Source of the DNA: Escherichia coli
Lineage (GTDB): Bacteria > Pseudomonadota > Gammaproteobacteria > Enterobacterales > Enterobacteriaceae
Assembly: GCF_003334355.1 (NCBI RefSeq)
Contig: NZ_QOWP01000056.1
Reading direction: 5' to 3' (one strand)
Length of the DNA: 10,236 bases
The translations under genes were made by a program, and so were the position numbers. Below, one piece after another: positions 4,132 through 10,236 of this stretch. The notes beneath the pieces are model-generated. The model searched no databases and was not told the origin of the DNA. It worked only from the letters and a program-made list of their open reading frames with translations. Positions within the stretch are counted from its first letter, which is position 1. The number at the start of each line of letters is the position of its first letter.

Positions 4132-4207
4132 GCCGATATAGCTCAGTTGGTAGAGCAGCGCATTCGTAATGCGAAGGTCGTAGGTTCGACTCCTATTATC
4201 GGCACCA
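4132..4207 (+). tRNA. thrW: tRNA-Thr (anticodon CGU)
   Basis: 76-nt sequence GCCGATATAGCTCAGTTGGTAGAGCAGCGCATTCGTAATGCGAAGGTCGTAGGTTCGACTCCTATTATCGGCACCA with encoded CCA; anticodon loop carries CGT; matches E. coli thrW. Confidence 0.96.
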
Positions 4208-5587: not shown

Positions 5588-5840
5588 AACAACTGGACAA
5601 GTATACAGAGGTTTACTAAAGTATAGGGGAGTAGATTGATAAAAACTCACAGAGGATTACTATTTAACAGTTAGCCCTGGAGAAGGGCAATCGCTCTTTT
5701 AACAACGAAGATGGAATCTTCTACGCAGCTGAAAAGCTGGATGCTCTTTAACAGCCTTTGGTGCTTTCCTGATGCAGGAAAGAATAGGGATACATGCACC
5801 TTTACAATGCATGTAATGATTCATCCATGAGGCTGCGGAT

Positions 5841-5863
5841 CGCTGACAAAGCGCAATTGCTCT
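5841..5863 (+). repeat. 23-bp direct repeat copy 1 (CGCTGACAAAGCGCAATTGCTCT) with palindromic GCAATTGC core; candidate operator
   Basis: Identical to 5954-5976. Part of a 26-bp imperfect dyad TGACAAAGCGCAA|TTGCTCTTTAACA. The right arm GCTCTTTAACA recurs at 5743-5753 and, with one extra T, at 5692-5704. Confidence 0.8.
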
Positions 5864-5953
5864 TTAACATTGATGTGGGCGGGATGGTTCGTCCCGCAGT
5901 GACCGATAGATTTCTATCGGGAAACATACAATGATTCAAATATGAATCTACGG

Positions 5954-5976
5954 CGCTGACAAAGCGCAATTGCTCT
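5954..5976 (+). repeat. 23-bp direct repeat copy 2 (CGCTGACAAAGCGCAATTGCTCT)
   Basis: Perfect copy 113 bp downstream of copy 1. Similarity extends upstream imperfectly (ATGAGGCTGCGGAT vs ATGAATCTACGG). Confidence 0.8.
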
Positions 5977-6238
5977 CTTGCCTGCCCACCATGCCCTGAA
6001 AAAGGGCGTTCTTTAAAACTACTGGATGTCACGCCTAATAGCGTGATCCTGCCGAAATGCAGGGTAGCTCTACCCTTGTGGAGCAAACAAACCAAAACAA
6101 TCTGACTATCTTTTATAAAAGACCGCAATATGTTTTTCATATTGTGGTCTTTGGCGTATTCGACATTTGATGCAAATAAAACTCTCGCCATTCGTTGCAG
6201 GAGGGAGTTATTGCGTCATTAGTACAGGATATTAATAA

Positions 6239-6442
6239 ATGGCTAATTACAATTCATTAATTCGTCTCTCTGAAGTTCAAAGGCGAACTGGTTATAGCAA
6301 AGCATGGATTTATCGTCTTATTAGTCAGGGGAGGTTCCCTAAACAGGTAAAAATTGGAAGTCGGGCAATTGCTTTTGTTGAGTCTGAAATAGATGAATGG
6401 ATTGAGAAGTGTATATTAGAATCTAGAGACGAGGTGGCCTGA
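6239..6442 (+). CDS. alpA: AlpA-family phage regulatory protein (Xis/Vis-like winged-helix DNA-binding protein)
   Basis: 67-aa ORF MANYNSLIRLSEVQRRTGYSKAWIYRLISQGRFPKQVKIGSRAIAFVESEIDEWIEK...; helix-turn-helix segment and E-I-D-E-W motif characteristic of AlpA/Vis family; typical position downstream of a P4-type integrase. Confidence 0.85.
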   Translation: MANYNSLIRLSEVQRRTGYSKAWIYRLISQGRFPKQVKIGSRAIAFVESEIDEWIEKCILESRDEVA

Positions 6443-6873
6443 TGGAAAAGAAAAACCGCCCATTACAGGCGGCTAATTCAGATATTCGCGTATCTGATGT
6501 TACGCCCCTGACAAAATCCCTTCAAGCACCAAAGCGCACACCGAAAAAGCATCGTGCCAGAGTCTATATGCTGCGTACTGGTATAGAGGGATGGACAGAA
6601 AATGACATTCTTCGCTACTGCCGTCTGTCTTCTGGTCGTAACTATGCAACAGAGTTAGAACGCCAGCTTGGAATCACTCTGGAGCGTATCGACGAAAAGA
6701 ATCCTGATGGTATCGGAACACACCTTCGCTACCGTTTCTCCTGCCGTGGTGATGTTCTGAAAGTGATCACTCATGTTAACCATCTTGCGAGCATAAATGA
6801 TCACAACGGACTTTCTCAGCAGGAAATTGCCGACATTCTGAAACTCTACCCGGACGCGTTTAACGCCGCCTAA
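6442..6873 (+). CDS. Hypothetical protein (143 aa), basic N-terminal tail; function unknown
   Basis: ATG overlaps the alpA stop (TGATG); GAGGTGG SD at 6431-6437. No family recognised. Confidence 0.7.
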   Translation: MEKKNRPLQAANSDIRVSDVTPLTKSLQAPKRTPKKHRARVYMLRTGIEGWTENDILRYCRLSSGRNYATELERQLGITLERIDEKNPDGIGTHLRYRFSCRGDVLKVITHVNHLASINDHNGLSQQEIADILKLYPDAFNAA

Positions 6874-6885
6874 CGGAGACTGAAA

Positions 6886-7719
6886 ATGAACATCGAAAAA
6901 AGCAGATTAATTTCTGAGGCCGCCCCTCATCTGAACGCCTCTCTGGGCACAATTAACGGTAATGAATTTGCCGCAATTGTCCCGGTTATTCCTGGTCATA
7001 TCGGTGGGCGTGAAACCAATATTGTTAGCGCAAAAGCGTTACACAAAGCGTTGGGCGTGGGAAAAGACTTCTCTACATGGATCACTGATCGCATCTCTGA
7101 ATATGACTTCACCATTGGGCACGATTACTCAGTCCATAAAACAATTTCCCCAAATTTGGGGAAAAGCCCGAATGGCGCGGCTTACAGCAAGATTAAGCAG
7201 TCTGGCAGACCCGGCAAAGACTATCTGTTAAGTGTCGGAATGGCGAAAGAACTGGCAATGATCGAACGCAATGATCAGGGTCGCGCTATCCGCCGTTATT
7301 TCATCCAGTGCGAGGAAGAATTACAGCGTAGCGTGCCTGAAATCGCCGCCCGCTATCGTCGCCAGCTAAAAGCCCGTATCAGTGCCGCAAACAACTTTAA
7401 GCCAATGTGCGATGCGCTGAATATGGCCCGTGCCGAGATGGGTAAAACGACGCAGCAACACCACTACACAAACGAGAGCAATATGATTTCTCGTATCGTT
7501 CTTGGTGGGCTAACTGCTAAGCAGTGGGCGCGGATAAATGGCTATTCTGGCGAACCTCGCGACCATATGAACGCAGAACAGCTTGAGCACCTCTCATATC
7601 TCGAAAGCACCAATATCACGTTAATTGATATGGGCATGGAATATGAGCAGCGCAAAGGAGAACTCACCCGCCTGTCGCAACGCTGGCTCGCCAAGCGTCT
7701 GGAGGTGGTCAATGTCTAA
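6886..7719 (+). CDS. Phage antirepressor-like protein (AntA/KilAC-type N-terminal domain), 277 aa
   Basis: GGAGA SD 6875-6879. Motifs ...AKALHKALGVGKDFSTWITDRISEYDF... and ...DYLLSVGMAKELAMIERNDQGRAIRRYFIQCEE... resemble the AntA-type antirepressor N-terminal domain as I recall it. Confidence 0.8.
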   Translation: MNIEKSRLISEAAPHLNASLGTINGNEFAAIVPVIPGHIGGRETNIVSAKALHKALGVGKDFSTWITDRISEYDFTIGHDYSVHKTISPNLGKSPNGAAYSKIKQSGRPGKDYLLSVGMAKELAMIERNDQGRAIRRYFIQCEEELQRSVPEIAARYRRQLKARISAANNFKPMCDALNMARAEMGKTTQQHHYTNESNMISRIVLGGLTAKQWARINGYSGEPRDHMNAEQLEHLSYLESTNITLIDMGMEYEQRKGELTRLSQRWLAKRLEVVNV

Positions 7720-7894
7720 GCCAACAGGAACACCACAACCACAAAAACGCTACAAAGATGCCCACGGAGCACTCGTTACTGTCGAAAGCGTGTCTCACAA
7801 CCGAGTGACGTTTTATCGCGACGGGTATCAATCGCCATGCGTACAACCGCTGGCGCGTTTCATGAAGGAGTTCGCGGAGGTTAACAAATGCTAA
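7712..7894 (+). CDS. Small phage-type protein (60 aa); tentatively DUF4222-like
   Basis: ATG 7712 with GGAGGTGG 6 nt upstream, overlapping the upstream stop (ATGTCTAA). Translation [60 protein letters not shown]. The track ORF starts further upstream (7625) inside the preceding gene; the internal start is better supported. Confidence 0.65.
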   Translation: MSKPTGTPQPQKRYKDAHGALVTVESVSHNRVTFYRDGYQSPCVQPLARFMKEFAEVNKC

Positions 7895-8955
7895 CCGTCC
7901 AGAAGAAGACATTTTCACTGGCTGGTATGTCGCCAAAATCCAGCAATATGACGGCAAAGTCAGGCATTAATACAGCAGATACAAGCAAAGTTTATCATTT
8001 GCTGGTGGTCGGAACGGATGCCTTAACCATATCAGAAATCTCGGGCGATGATATTAGCATTGAGAAGGTCAGCGGCTGCGCCAGAAAATTTCTGGTCGTA
8101 GATGATGTCTTCCGCTCGTGTAGTGACTCCACAAAAACATTCGTCCACGCGCGTGACGTTAACGAAATGAGCGCGATGTACTGTGCATCTGGTGCTTCCA
8201 ATAGCGAGTTTTCGGAGTCCATAAAAAAGAGCTTGCCGTTATGCGGCAACACGGTTTATGGTTATAAGGCACCTCATAAAACGGGTGCCGGGATTGGCGT
8301 CCTGGTAAATCGAATGGCGACATATGACGCGCCGAGCGTCTTTTTTTATGTCGTAGGTCTGACTCACCCATTTTTTGGGCGTTGGTGTATAATCCAGCGC
8401 CTTTGTCAATCAATGGTGGCTCAGGCAGGGGCTTCTTCGGAAGCGCCGGTATCCATTCGAGCCGGTTACGCCAACCCTGTCTGGGCTACCACCAGCGAAA
8501 TTGGCGTTTCCGGTGGTAGCGTTACATGCTATCGAATGGAGGCTGCCACATGCTGGCTACTACCCCTACCCAAAAACCGCAATTTATCTGGATTATCGCC
8601 GCAGTTCGCCGCGATTGCCCGACAATTACCGCCAAAATTCATCATATTGCTGCCGAGTCTGAACGCGATGCTCGCCGTTCTCTGGTGCGCGATCACGTCT
8701 GCTTTTTTGCTGGTCGTATCCGCATGGAGGTGGCACATGATTAAAACCTACGATGTGCATATGGATCCCCTCGAACGCACAAGCCAGATCATCACACTGA
8801 CAGAAGTGATTAACGACATTCTGGTGAGCAACTCTCCCTCACGAGACGAAAGACTGAAGGCGTTACTCGCGATATTGGATCTCGCCGTTCGTGACGTTCA
8901 TTTCCTGCTGGAAGGTGGCGAAATGCCAGGAAAAACGGGGGCAACCAATGAATAA
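7888..8955 (+). CDS. Unresolved 355-codon open frame: real N-terminal gene start at 7888; frame stays open through the structured RNA region, the Icd-like gene (other frame) and the 8737 small gene
   Basis: ATG 7888 with GGAGG 7 nt upstream and ATGCTAA overlap with the upstream stop supports initiation. No stop in this frame until 8953-8955. Residues ~176-215 ([35 protein letters not shown]) resemble what databases label ash family protein, but this stretch coincides with strong RNA hairpins. The true C-terminus is unknown. Confidence 0.3.
8326..8347 (+). terminator. Intrinsic-terminator-like element inside the 7888 frame
   Basis: GACGC (8326-8330) / GCGTC (8336-8340) 5-bp GC-rich stem, 5-nt loop, followed by seven T (8341-8347). 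A second T6 run is at 8371-8376. Confidence 0.35.
8388..8393 (+). promoter_or_regulatory. Consensus -10 hexamer TATAAT, TG immediately upstream; possible promoter for the structured RNA/icd leader
   Basis: GTGTATAAT at 8385-8393. No convincing -35 at 17 bp spacing, so weak. Confidence 0.25.
8428..8520 (+). ncRNA. Candidate c4/CI-type antisense regulatory RNA (three consecutive hairpins)
   Basis: HP1 8431-8444: GCTTC/GAAGC stem with TTCG tetraloop. HP2 8445-8466: 6-bp stem (2 wobble) with a 10-nt loop carrying TCCATTCGA (8452-8460). HP3 8485-8520: 9-bp stem CTACCACC.../...GGTGGTAG plus 6-bp inner stem, TTGG loop. The HP2 loop is exactly complementary to TCGAATGGA (8532-8540), which overlaps the GGAGG SD of the Icd-like gene, and 8/9 complementary to 8310-8317. 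Confidence 0.4.
8550..8744 (+). CDS. Host cell division inhibitor Icd-like protein (64 aa)
   Basis: ATG 8550 with GGAGG 8538-8542. Translation [64 protein letters not shown]; the F-x-W-x-x-x-A-V-R-R ... E-x-x-A-R-R ... F-A-x-R pattern matches my recollection of Icd-like proteins of P1/P4-type elements. The track start at 8526 lacks an SD. Confidence 0.6.
   Translation: MLATTPTQKPQFIWIIAAVRRDCPTITAKIHHIAAESERDARRSLVRDHVCFFAGRIRMEVAHD
8737..8955 (+). CDS. Small acidic hypothetical protein (72 aa), independently initiated
   Basis: ATG 8737 with GGAGGTGG at 8727-8734; overlaps the icd-like stop as ATGATTAA. Translation [72 protein letters not shown]. Same frame as the 7888 ORF. Confidence 0.55.
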   Translation: MIKTYDVHMDPLERTSQIITLTEVINDILVSNSPSRDERLKALLAILDLAVRDVHFLLEGGEMPGKTGATNE

Positions 8956-9142
8956 CTCAATTAATACCCCTCGCCTTACGTCCGCACTTCAATTAATCGA
9001 GCAAGCAGCGGCTGTCCTGGTTGCTGTCAGTCTTTCGGCTGAAGAAATGGACGCTGCTGATGTCGTGGATGCGATTAAAGCGTGCTCATCTTTGGTTAAC
9101 GATGCCCGTGCCGAGCTGGTAATTCTTGGGGGTGAAAAATGA
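8948..9142 (+). CDS. Small acidic hypothetical protein (64 aa)
   Basis: ATG 8948 overlapping the upstream stop (ATGAATAA); [64 protein letters not shown]. The track start at 8891 lies inside the upstream gene. Confidence 0.6.
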   Translation: MNNSINTPRLTSALQLIEQAAAVLVAVSLSAEEMDAADVVDAIKACSSLVNDARAELVILGGEK

Positions 9143-9402
9143 ATATCAACTTAATTTATCGTCATCCGTGTGAGCTGGAAATTGAATCATTGCTGGGGCG
9201 TGAAGAGCCATATCCAGACACATTCACTCCCGCAGATTGCGCGACTGAACGGCTTACCAGAGCGCGCACAGGTCTGGTTCATGTGATGAATGAGATTGTT
9301 CCCTCGGTGGGAGGGGAACAGGCGACAGTAATCAATAGCTGGCTACAAAAAGTTACCTCCCTGATAGATATCGGTTTAATCGATGTGGAGAGTGCGAAAT
9401 GA
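9139..9402 (+). CDS. Small acidic hypothetical protein (87 aa)
   Basis: ATGA overlap with upstream stop; GGGGGTG upstream; MNINLIYRHPCELEIESLLGREEPYPDTF... Confidence 0.65.
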   Translation: MNINLIYRHPCELEIESLLGREEPYPDTFTPADCATERLTRARTGLVHVMNEIVPSVGGEQATVINSWLQKVTSLIDIGLIDVESAK

Positions 9403-9620
9403 CCAACATCCAGCTCATTGAAGCGCAATGTCGCATCGAACAGGTTCAGACTGTTTTAGGGTTCTGGCTTGAAGGGGCCAGCCCCAGCAACAGAGACAAG
9501 TTAATGATTGGCGCGGTTATGTCACTGCTCAATGGCGTACCAGAAGCTATTCAGGAAGCGGACGAATTGTTGGGCAAATATGAGTTACAGAATCATTCAG
9601 GCGAGGCGAAACATGAATAA
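9399..9620 (+). CDS. Small acidic hypothetical protein (73 aa)
   Basis: ATGA overlap with upstream stop; GGAG at 9387-9390; MTNIQLIEAQCRIEQVQTVLGFWLEGASPSNRDKLMIGAVMSLLNGVPEAIQEADELLGKYELQNHSGEAKHE. Confidence 0.6.
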   Translation: MTNIQLIEAQCRIEQVQTVLGFWLEGASPSNRDKLMIGAVMSLLNGVPEAIQEADELLGKYELQNHSGEAKHE

Positions 9621-10161
9621 TTTCTTAACCTTCCATGCAGAAGCAACGCCTGACGGCGTAAACATCATGCACCGCAGCAACGATGGCATGACAGAACGCG
9701 TTGAGACCGTCTCATATATTGATGCCGTAAATCGTCTGGATGCCGGGGATTATGACGATAAACCAGATGAAGGCATGTTTATACATCTCGCTATTGCCAG
9801 TGGCGGCAACCAGGGATATTTCGATTACACATCACAGCATCACGTGATTATGTGGCGCTGGCTGATAGCAACAGCATTCATCAATGAAATGAGAAAGGAA
9901 AACGGCACCGTCAGCATTATTGATGACAGTGGCAATCATTCCGTGGTTTCTGTTTATTCCAATGGCATCGTCGCCATGCCGCTGTATCCAGTAGCAGAGC
10001 GCCTCGCTATGGCAAACAACATTGAGGGCGCAATGATCGAGAAATATGGTGTTGATGTCGGAACAAAGAATGCCATCATTTTTTACAGCAACATGTTCGA
10101 TGTCGAACAGGGAACACTCACTTCGTTTGGGCGAGAAGTGCTTGCCGATCTTCACAACTGA
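9613..10161 (+). CDS. Hypothetical protein (182 aa); stop codon supplied by the first 3 nt of the downstream IS, so possibly C-terminally truncated
   Basis: ATG 9613 overlapping upstream stop (ATGAATAA), GAGG at 9603-9606; MNNFLTFHAEATPDGVNIMHRSNDGMTERVETVSYIDAVNRLDAGDYDDKPDEGMF.... The track start at 9508 is inside the upstream gene. TGA 10159-10161 coincides with the IS terminal TGAACCGCC. Confidence 0.7.
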   Translation: MNNFLTFHAEATPDGVNIMHRSNDGMTERVETVSYIDAVNRLDAGDYDDKPDEGMFIHLAIASGGNQGYFDYTSQHHVIMWRWLIATAFINEMRKENGTVSIIDDSGNHSVVSVYSNGIVAMPLYPVAERLAMANNIEGAMIEKYGVDVGTKNAIIFYSNMFDVEQGTLTSFGREVLADLHN

Positions 10162-10236
10162 ACCGCCCCGGAAATCCTGGAGACTAAACTCCCTGAGAAA
10201 GAGGTAAACAGGATGACTAAAAATACTCGTTTTTCC
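10159..10236 (+). mobile_element. IS3-family insertion sequence (IS629/IS1203-like), left end; continues beyond window
   Basis: TGAACCGCCCCGGAAATCCTGGAGACTAAACTCCCTGAGAAAGAGGTAAACAGG then ATG...MTKNTRFS matches my recollection of the IS629-type left inverted repeat and OrfA N-terminus. From memory, not verified. Confidence 0.65.
10213..10236 (+). CDS. IS3-family transposase OrfA, N-terminal 8 codons (3'-partial at window edge)
   Basis: ATG 10213 preceded by GAGG; MTKNTRFS...; only 24 nt available. Confidence 0.5.

Follow-up and report, generated by a model that had tools for sequence, protein, structure and literature searches.

In phage P1, a block of icd translation silences the coupled gene downstream of it. 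The left operon of the satellite P4 runs from an AlpA-like gene through the CI RNA and an Icd-like open reading frame (ORF) to epsilon, orf151, ORF106 (DUF5375) and alpha, and it contains 8-nucleotide (nt) overlaps. We take the P4 ORF106 product to be Cnr, a negative regulator of copy number of 106 amino acids (aa) that acts on alpha, a function that reportedly goes back to Terzano in 1994 and Ziegelin in 1997. DUF5375 has been described as the family located between epsilon and alpha and is said to include cnr (PMC8628076). EcCIMP1 is a phage-inducible chromosomal island (PICI) of Escherichia coli MP1 and relies on the P22-like phage Kapi1 for its mobilisation (Pick, Stadel & Raivio, ISME J 2025, PMC11773190). 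It is excised and transduced only with this helper, it contributes to superinfection immunity, no recognised defence system is aboard, and its small genes are listed as "hypothetical proteins" (PMC11773190). Islands of this type are common in commensal and pathogenic E. coli, and no role had been assigned to the genes that separate the immunity RNA from the primase gene in them. Here we analyzed a stretch of 10,236 nt from E. coli (NCBI RefSeq assembly GCF_003334355.1, contig NZ_QOWP01000056.1), referred to as the window, in which a preliminary description had noted five small acidic ORFs, here named A to E. The best overall explanation, to which we assign a probability of about one half, combines the finding that these ORFs are genuine genes of an early, replication-proximal operon in an EcCIMP1-type PICI inserted at tRNA-Thr with the proposals that this operon is gated by an antisense RNA, that E modulates the neighbouring primase-helicase and that A to D act on helper or host proteins.

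All five ORFs were found on the + strand at the expected coordinates and with the lengths given before (72, 64, 87, 73 and 182 aa), and they are preceded by an Icd-like gene:

8550-8744, + strand: Icd-like gene, 64 aa from the ATG at 8550 (NCBIfam NF033153, 71.3 bits; cut-off 25)
8737-8955, + strand: ORF A, 72 aa, isoelectric point (pI) 4.82
8948-9142, + strand: ORF B, 64 aa, pI 4.21
9139-9402, + strand: ORF C, 87 aa, pI 4.69, modelled as a helical hairpin
9399-9620, + strand: ORF D, 73 aa, pI 4.70, in most loci directly 5' of E
9613-10161, + strand: ORF E, 182 aa, pI 4.64, residues 1-182 of a native 200, stop codon supplied by an insertion sequence (IS)

ORFs A to E all start with ATG, and a purine run resembling a Shine-Dalgarno (SD) sequence lies 5-12 nt 5' of each start. 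The head-to-tail arrangement with overlapping stop and start codons was confirmed: the A/B and D/E overlaps are ATGAATAA (8 nt each), and the B/C and C/D overlaps are ATGA (4 nt each). The Icd-like gene overlaps A by 8 nt (ATGATTAA), so that the junctions in the window read -8/-8/-4/-4/-8 nt. An alternative start of the Icd-like gene at ATG 8526 would give 72 aa; the RefSeq annotation of strain MP1 has the 64-aa form. For comparison we used 40 related primase-bearing loci (individual loci are cited by L numbers), in which 132 junctions of the array were of these two sizes, 101 of them at -4 nt and 31 at -8 nt. Because such junctions recur across these loci, the coupling is not due to chance. 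In intact islands, a gene for a 918-aa primase-helicase with Zn-ribbon, Toprim and DUF927 regions follows 12 nt past E, or past two further coupled ORFs of 113 and 123 aa, and the terminator scan detected no terminator-like site on the + strand within 8500-10161. The coupled chain thus begins at the Icd-like gene and reaches the primase gene in intact islands, and the unit is therefore icd-A-B-C-D-E-(primase). The coupling of the five genes that had been proposed earlier stands, and the limits of a five-gene operon do not, as the Icd-like gene precedes them and the primase gene follows them.

The 3' end of the unit in the window is interrupted by a mobile element:

10159-10236, + strand: left end of an IS3-like element, IS1203/IS629, with its orfA from 10214

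Homology with all other island copies ends at 10158, and the sequence beyond is 98-99% identical to annotated IS1203 copies in thousands of records. The stop codon of ORF E (TGA, 10159-10161) is the first triplet of the inserted IS1203. In intact islands E has 200 aa, and the copy in the window has lost the last 18 residues with the conserved tail ...NGxPxxPxxH. The 182-aa ORF described before is thus correct as a reading frame, and its length is not native because its stop codon comes from IS1203. IS1203 also parts the operon from the primase gene, and with E truncated and the primase gene separated, the insertion may have disabled this copy of the island, which may therefore be defective in replication. 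A search of 5,426 complete E. coli genomes found the junction between IS and E in none of them.

The most informative member of the operon is ORF E. When a 60-sequence alignment of E was compared by hhalign with a 16-sequence alignment of Cnr/DUF5375, we obtained a probability of 93.1% and an E-value of 3.2e-7 over 94 columns, with E residues 73-188 aligned to Cnr residues 7-102, which is nearly the whole of Cnr. In control comparisons the reversed control gave an E-value of 0.22, and the minimum among 20 column-shuffles was 0.25. E also matched phrog_1515 (7e-41) and phrog_5991, the P4 ORF106 family (E-value 0.0055), and precomputed PF17345 assignments were present in 3 of 120 E homologues among the matches listed. 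A C-terminal ..PV(T/L)H is common to the E family and Cnr. The location of the gene agrees with these alignments: E is present in 40 of the 40 loci, either directly 5' of the primase gene or 1-2 ORFs away from it, and the Cnr family holds the same place upstream of the primase gene in P4 and in the P4-like loci L092 and L093. Diverged E orthologues share 38-62% identity. The family is small: of 1.84 billion representatives, 173 clusters (50% identity) belong to it, all of them unannotated and most of them, with few exceptions, 190-220 aa long. Judging from these comparisons, E is a two-domain, long-form (200-aa) distant homologue of P4 Cnr, and by analogy it probably regulates the neighbouring replication enzyme. 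It would act on the primase-helicase encoded next to it, either on its activity or on its binding to the origin, in the way that Cnr acts on P4 alpha. The homology to Cnr and the place beside the primase gene argue for a role of E in replication control rather than in host takeover.

The structural model of E (AlphaFold2, AF2, from the 60-sequence alignment) had a predicted local distance difference test score (pLDDT) of 93.4 and a predicted template modelling score (pTM) of 0.88. Its N-terminal part (residues 1-66) was modelled as a three-stranded sheet with two helices, and it is followed by a helical core (74-97, 126-145, 147-161 and 171-191) that is broken by a three-strand insertion (99-124). 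A fold search with this model found no DNA mimic and no other solved structural relative, and a search for solved relatives by sequence gave a single insignificant hit, the ribosomal protein bS6 (E-value 0.084). In the AFDB50 fold search, a few of the 50 matches listed had labels that were clearly spurious, and the others were prophage proteins or proteins without characterisation. We also considered the N-terminal domain of E as a fused 75-aa protein, P4 orf151 or epsilon, and rejected this (hhalign E-values 0.24-0.7).

Relatives of E are also found outside satellites. The temperate phage phiP27 has DnaC/DnaB-type replication genes and an E homologue and lacks an alpha-like primase; the E family is therefore not strictly tied to the island primase, and a strict co-occurrence of the two in phages was ruled out. 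In 45 of 47 temperate phage loci (L043-L089), a coupled 67-aa ORF is located about 230 nt 5' of the E homologue. This ORF is unrelated to D in sequence, and P4-like satellites have another ORF there, of 75 aa; a correspondence of D to the latter (phrog_10110) was rejected as well (hhalign E-values 0.11-0.12). As the ORF in this slot differs between lineages, a small upstream partner of changing identity is a recurring feature.

ORFs A to D are members of a reshuffled array of small cassettes, which are acidic for the most part and linked by overlaps of 4 or 8 nt. In the 40 loci, the interval from the Icd-like gene to the primase gene showed 18 gene orders, built from about 11 interchangeable families, namely A to E and cassettes of 59, 63, 65, 86, 104, 113 and 123 aa. 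The sole pair of families that appear to be related is that of the 113-aa and 123-aa proteins (hhalign E-value 1.2e-4); a single helical-hairpin family for A to D and the other cassettes was rejected, the best E-values among 55 hhalign pairs (0.009-0.012) not being significant after multiple testing. ORF A was found in 22 loci, with four full-length diverged orthologues (L035, L042, L039 and L040) at 37-53% identity, and it is intact yet unannotated in EcCIMP1. In L039, A sits between another cassette and E, and because of this different array position we consider it a gene in its own right and not the tail of a 355-aa ORF that in some RefSeq records is annotated across this region. ORF C was found in 32 loci, with diverged orthologues at 47-54% identity, and ORF D in 35 of the 40 loci at 33-48% identity. 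Since A, C, D and E are kept as ORFs in diverged elements, the lack of conservation that the preliminary description had named as a reason to discard its genes does not apply to these four.

The conservation data also bear on the possibility that some of the ORFs, B above all, are chance or decaying frames carried along in the operon. The best case for such a view is B itself, the weakest gene and, as far as homology searches tell, an orphan of E. coli: among 5.8 billion protein clusters its full-length homologues are from E. coli at an identity of at least 94%, except for one 76-aa hit at 68%. The missing RefSeq annotation of A, a frameshift in L008 (5126-5530) that fuses A and B at their 8-nt overlap into a 134-aa ORF, and the polymorphic sites of C, which in close relatives are distributed 7/7/6 over the three codon positions with no third-position bias, point in the same direction. 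However, full-length orthologues of A, C, D and E occur in diverged loci and keep their start positions, an SD-like sequence and a coupled start are present for each of the ORFs, and the fusion in L008 leaves both frames open. Moreover, the frame and length of B are constant in 17 of 17 close loci with polymorphic sites at 2/2/6, and those of D in close relatives are confined to third positions (0/0/6). We consider it highly improbable that some of the ORFs are such frames.

As for families, A, B and C matched none in Pfam, NCBIfam, PHROGs, PADLOC or PDB, and D matched none in Pfam, NCBIfam, PADLOC or PDB. ORF D did match two PHROGs of unknown function, including phrog_20558 (2.9e-9). The earlier statement that no family could be named is hence upheld for A, B and C, and it no longer applies to D, or to E with phrog_1515 and its remote Cnr relationship. 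No relatives of A to D with a solved structure were found by sequence, and a literature search for the RefSeq accessions of B to E returned no paper. The satellite context proved right, the element being an EcCIMP1-type island, and A to E are early genes without experimental characterisation.

The preliminary description had called all five proteins strongly acidic and had regarded them as candidate DNA mimics or factors for anti-defence or host takeover. By our computation they are only moderately acidic, with pI values of 4.2-4.8 and net charges of -5 to -14 per protein, or -7 to -8 per 100 aa; the island genes upstream encode basic proteins (pI 8.9-9.7). T7 Ocr carries about -24 per 100 aa, so that the charge density of A to E is roughly one third of that of Ocr. 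Their Asp+Glu content of 14-17% lies below the roughly 25-30% taken as the mark of a DNA mimic. Like Ocr and ArdA, A to E are small, acidic, early proteins of mobile elements; unlike A to E, Ocr and ArdA have an about threefold higher charge density, and we found no sequence or fold similarity between the two sets. Neither sequence searches nor fold comparisons (the E model, the C hairpin) revealed a mimic relative, and the idea of mimicry found no support.

An action of A to D, and perhaps E, against restriction-modification or other host defences, with some of them mimicking DNA, appears unlikely to us on the whole. Beyond the size, acidity and early position of the proteins, it can draw on the presence of E-family proteins in early-left operons of temperate phages, a frequent home of anti-restriction genes, and on the variation of the cassettes. 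Such variation between conserved flanks is known from phage accessory regions (Silas et al., bioRxiv 10.1101/2023.04.06.535777), and the 18 orders in 40 loci are as expected of accessory genes in an arms race. These points are set against the low charge and against searches for anti-restriction, anti-defence and defence families, in which A to E had no match in Pfam, NCBIfam, PHROGs or PDB and no meaningful hit in PADLOC; the earlier suggestion of anti-defence or takeover factors thus found no support. For E, the homology to a replication regulator contradicts the suggestion directly. In addition, under the predicted C4 repression described below the proteins would be made after induction, which is late to protect incoming DNA, although they could act after transfer to a new cell. 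On our preferred explanation, that of an early satellite operon, A to D would be protein-binding modulators made in the induced state only, and their likeliest targets, by analogy with P4 epsilon in the same slot, would be helper-phage or host proteins that differ between helpers or strains.

The region upstream of the Icd-like gene contains an RNA control cassette with the following elements:

8269-8346, + strand: isrK-like leader element (Rfam RF01394, 67.1 bits; gathering score 50)
8294-8300 (b1) and 8310-8317 (a1), + strand: first C4 target pair, inside the isrK-like element
8326-8340 plus a T run, + strand: intrinsic terminator in the isrK-like element, from the terminator scan
8409-8496, + strand: immunity RNA, an antisense RNA of the C4/CI type (Rfam RF01695, 79.5 bits; gathering score 45)
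8452-8460, + strand: C4 loop a', UCCAUUCGA
8468-8474, + strand: C4 loop b', ACGCCAA
8501-8507 (b2) and 8532-8540 (a2), + strand: second C4 target pair, exactly complementary to the loops

Both target pairs are exactly complementary to the two C4 loops in the window, and the a2 target overlaps the SD sequence GGAGG (8538-8542) of the Icd-like gene ahead of its ATG at 8550. Loops and targets covary in all 14 loci compared, among them P4 itself and one typical P4-like satellite: the loops differ, and both target pairs change to match. Despite these different loop sequences, the layout of a2 target, GGAGG, a spacing of 6-9 nt and ATG is identical in the 14 loci. The two features by which we judged membership in the P1/P4-type C4/CI immunity operons, a C4 RNA 5' of an Icd-like ORF and covariation of two loops with two target pairs, were thus both present. 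In a resident, uninduced island the C4 RNA would block translation of icd, and this block would pass through the coupling, and probably through polarity too, to silence A to E and the primase gene. Upon induction, icd, A to E and the primase would all be produced together.

The same region is covered by a 355-aa ORF (7888-8955) that RefSeq annotates as an 'ash family protein'. This ORF spans the genes of both RNAs, isrK and C4, and in a different frame it also overlaps the Icd-like gene. The match of the ORF to PF10554 (Phage_ASH) comprises residues 124-232, corresponding to 8257-8583, which is the region of isrK, C4 and targets. Because this match coincides exactly with the RNAs and their targets, the family appears to model a translated RNA locus. 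Ash/PF10554 serves as the 'epsilon' marker for P4-like satellites (PMC8628076), and the artefact bears on genome annotation and on tools that search for satellites.

An Icd-like gene next to a primase gene could also belong to an abortive-infection or superinfection-exclusion module, in which the primase, the small proteins and a toxin, the Icd-like product, would jointly sense an incoming phage and arrest either the phage or the cell, with A to D as sensors, adaptors or antitoxins. The immunity phenotype of EcCIMP1 is unexplained, with no defence system recognised there and none found by PADLOC in the window, and a cell-death locus of strain ECOR61 has been reported in which an Icd-like gene is linked to a primase gene (contig QOYT01000045.1; Silas et al., bioRxiv 10.1101/2023.04.06.535777). 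By its published description that locus links an Icd-like gene, small ORFs and a DNA primase, the same linkage as seen here, and the suppressor insertions fell in the Icd-like gene and in two small hypothetical genes (same reference). However, these two small genes lie upstream and not downstream of the Icd-like gene, and in P4, where the genes have the same order, replication and helper derepression account for it. We therefore regard such a module as quite unlikely. We are similarly doubtful of a bolder version, in which the C4-gated operon from icd through A to E to the primase is a superinfection-immunity or abortive-infection device of EcCIMP1-type satellites and A to D and their alternatives are phage-protein specificity modules coupled to an Icd-like division inhibitor or to a Cnr-like/primase switch.

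Several observations weigh against the explanation that we prefer, an RNA-gated replication operon with a Cnr-like E. The C4 repression and the polarity are both predicted from sequence, and the function proposed for E is extrapolated from a remote homologue. In hmmscan, PF17345 was not matched by E and nine relatives, for which no Pfam family was found even at an E-value of at most 0.1. An N-terminal alpha/beta domain and a beta insertion set E apart from Cnr, which lacks both, and at 200 aa E is not a single all-helical domain of about 106 aa. Between the island enzyme and P4 alpha, similarity is limited to the primase domain (33% identity over 360 residues); the island enzyme is chimeric (L001, 10729-13485), and its helicase part resembles a staphylococcal SaPI-type protein (PDB 8tch, E-value 1e-11). 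The helicase region of alpha is presumably where Cnr acts. E homologues at 33-38% identity occur in early-left operons of temperate phages. For the remaining ORFs, B could be young or non-functional, the model of C is a generic helical hairpin and its fold uninformative, paralogy among A to D was not detectable by hhalign, and a tblastn search with A to D (concatenated) against 50,697 phage genomes gave nothing at an E-value of at most 0.1.

The assignment to the island type follows from its site and gene order. The left part of the window consists of phoE, proB, proA and tRNA-Thr (4132-4207), followed by the mobile element, the left boundary of which is marked by the attachment (att) core:

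4191-4200, + strand: att core TCCTATTATC, within tRNA-Thr

This core had one exact match, with 0.01 expected by chance, and EcCIMP1 has the identical att core at the identical proA/tRNA-Thr site (PMC11773190). Positions 5996-10158 are 94.4% identical to EcCIMP1 at the nucleotide level, with shared gene order. The island genes run in the order integrase, AlpA, 143-aa ORF, AntA antirepressor, DUF4222, the two RNA elements, the Icd-like gene and A to E. Insertion site, att core and the synteny from int and alpA to the primase gene, which lies beyond the IS and outside the window, all fit an EcCIMP1-type PICI. Antisense between the integrase and alpA genes is a 129-aa ORF on the - strand (5802-6191; hypothetical in RefSeq), which from its position alone may be the gene whose 'UvrB-like' label the EcCIMP1 paper treats as a mis-annotation. 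The int-alpA RNA (Rfam RF02996) lies between integrase and alpA in L009, L024, L026, L029, L039 and L040 (at about 660-1750), and in the window no hit to it was reported at the gathering score. In intact islands of the EcCIMP1 type, genes for P22-type DNA-ejection proteins lie 3' of the primase gene (DUF2824, gp7-like, Inj_translocase and lytic transglycosylase; L001 14070-17819, L005 10647-12603, L174 5481-10827), which is unusual cargo for a satellite whose helper is itself P22-like.

The link to Cnr gives the 200-aa protein a testable role, the control of satellite replication. For A to D the question is narrowed to helper-specific modulators, anti-defence factors or parts of superinfection immunity, and the cassette array, with its small protein families, offers a compact screening set.

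Compared with EcCIMP1, the window encodes an identical D and proteins that differ at 1 of 64 residues in B, 8 of 87 in C and 27 of 182 in E. EcCIMP1 has the 113-aa and 123-aa ORFs between E and the primase gene, whereas the window has IS1203 inside E. With the P4 left operon and with immI of P1/P7 (c4 RNA, icd, ant), the island shares the regulatory RNA, the logic of two loops and two target pairs, and a target placed over the ribosome binding site of icd. With P4 it further shares the gene order, in which the RNA is followed by the Icd-like ORF, a series of small coupled ORFs and the primase gene. The slot of A to D is held in P4 by epsilon, the helper derepressor, and orf151; A to D have no detectable similarity to either of these or to the 75-aa family of P4-like satellites. 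P4 Cnr and E are both encoded upstream of primase-helicases with homologous primase domains, in operons controlled by a C4/CI RNA, but E is twice as long. Whereas alpha has a D5-type helicase and a C-terminal domain, the island enzyme has a DUF927/SaPI-type helicase. The island also lacks the psu/delta/sid capsid-size module of P4, and its intact copies have the ejection-protein genes instead. P4-like satellites and this PICI lineage thus share one early-operon blueprint despite different helicases and helpers. Early operons gated by RNA are known from P4 and P1, and the present operon is a variant of this type within a published PICI family; what is new here is the link of E to Cnr, the cassette nature of A to D and the "Ash" annotation artefact.

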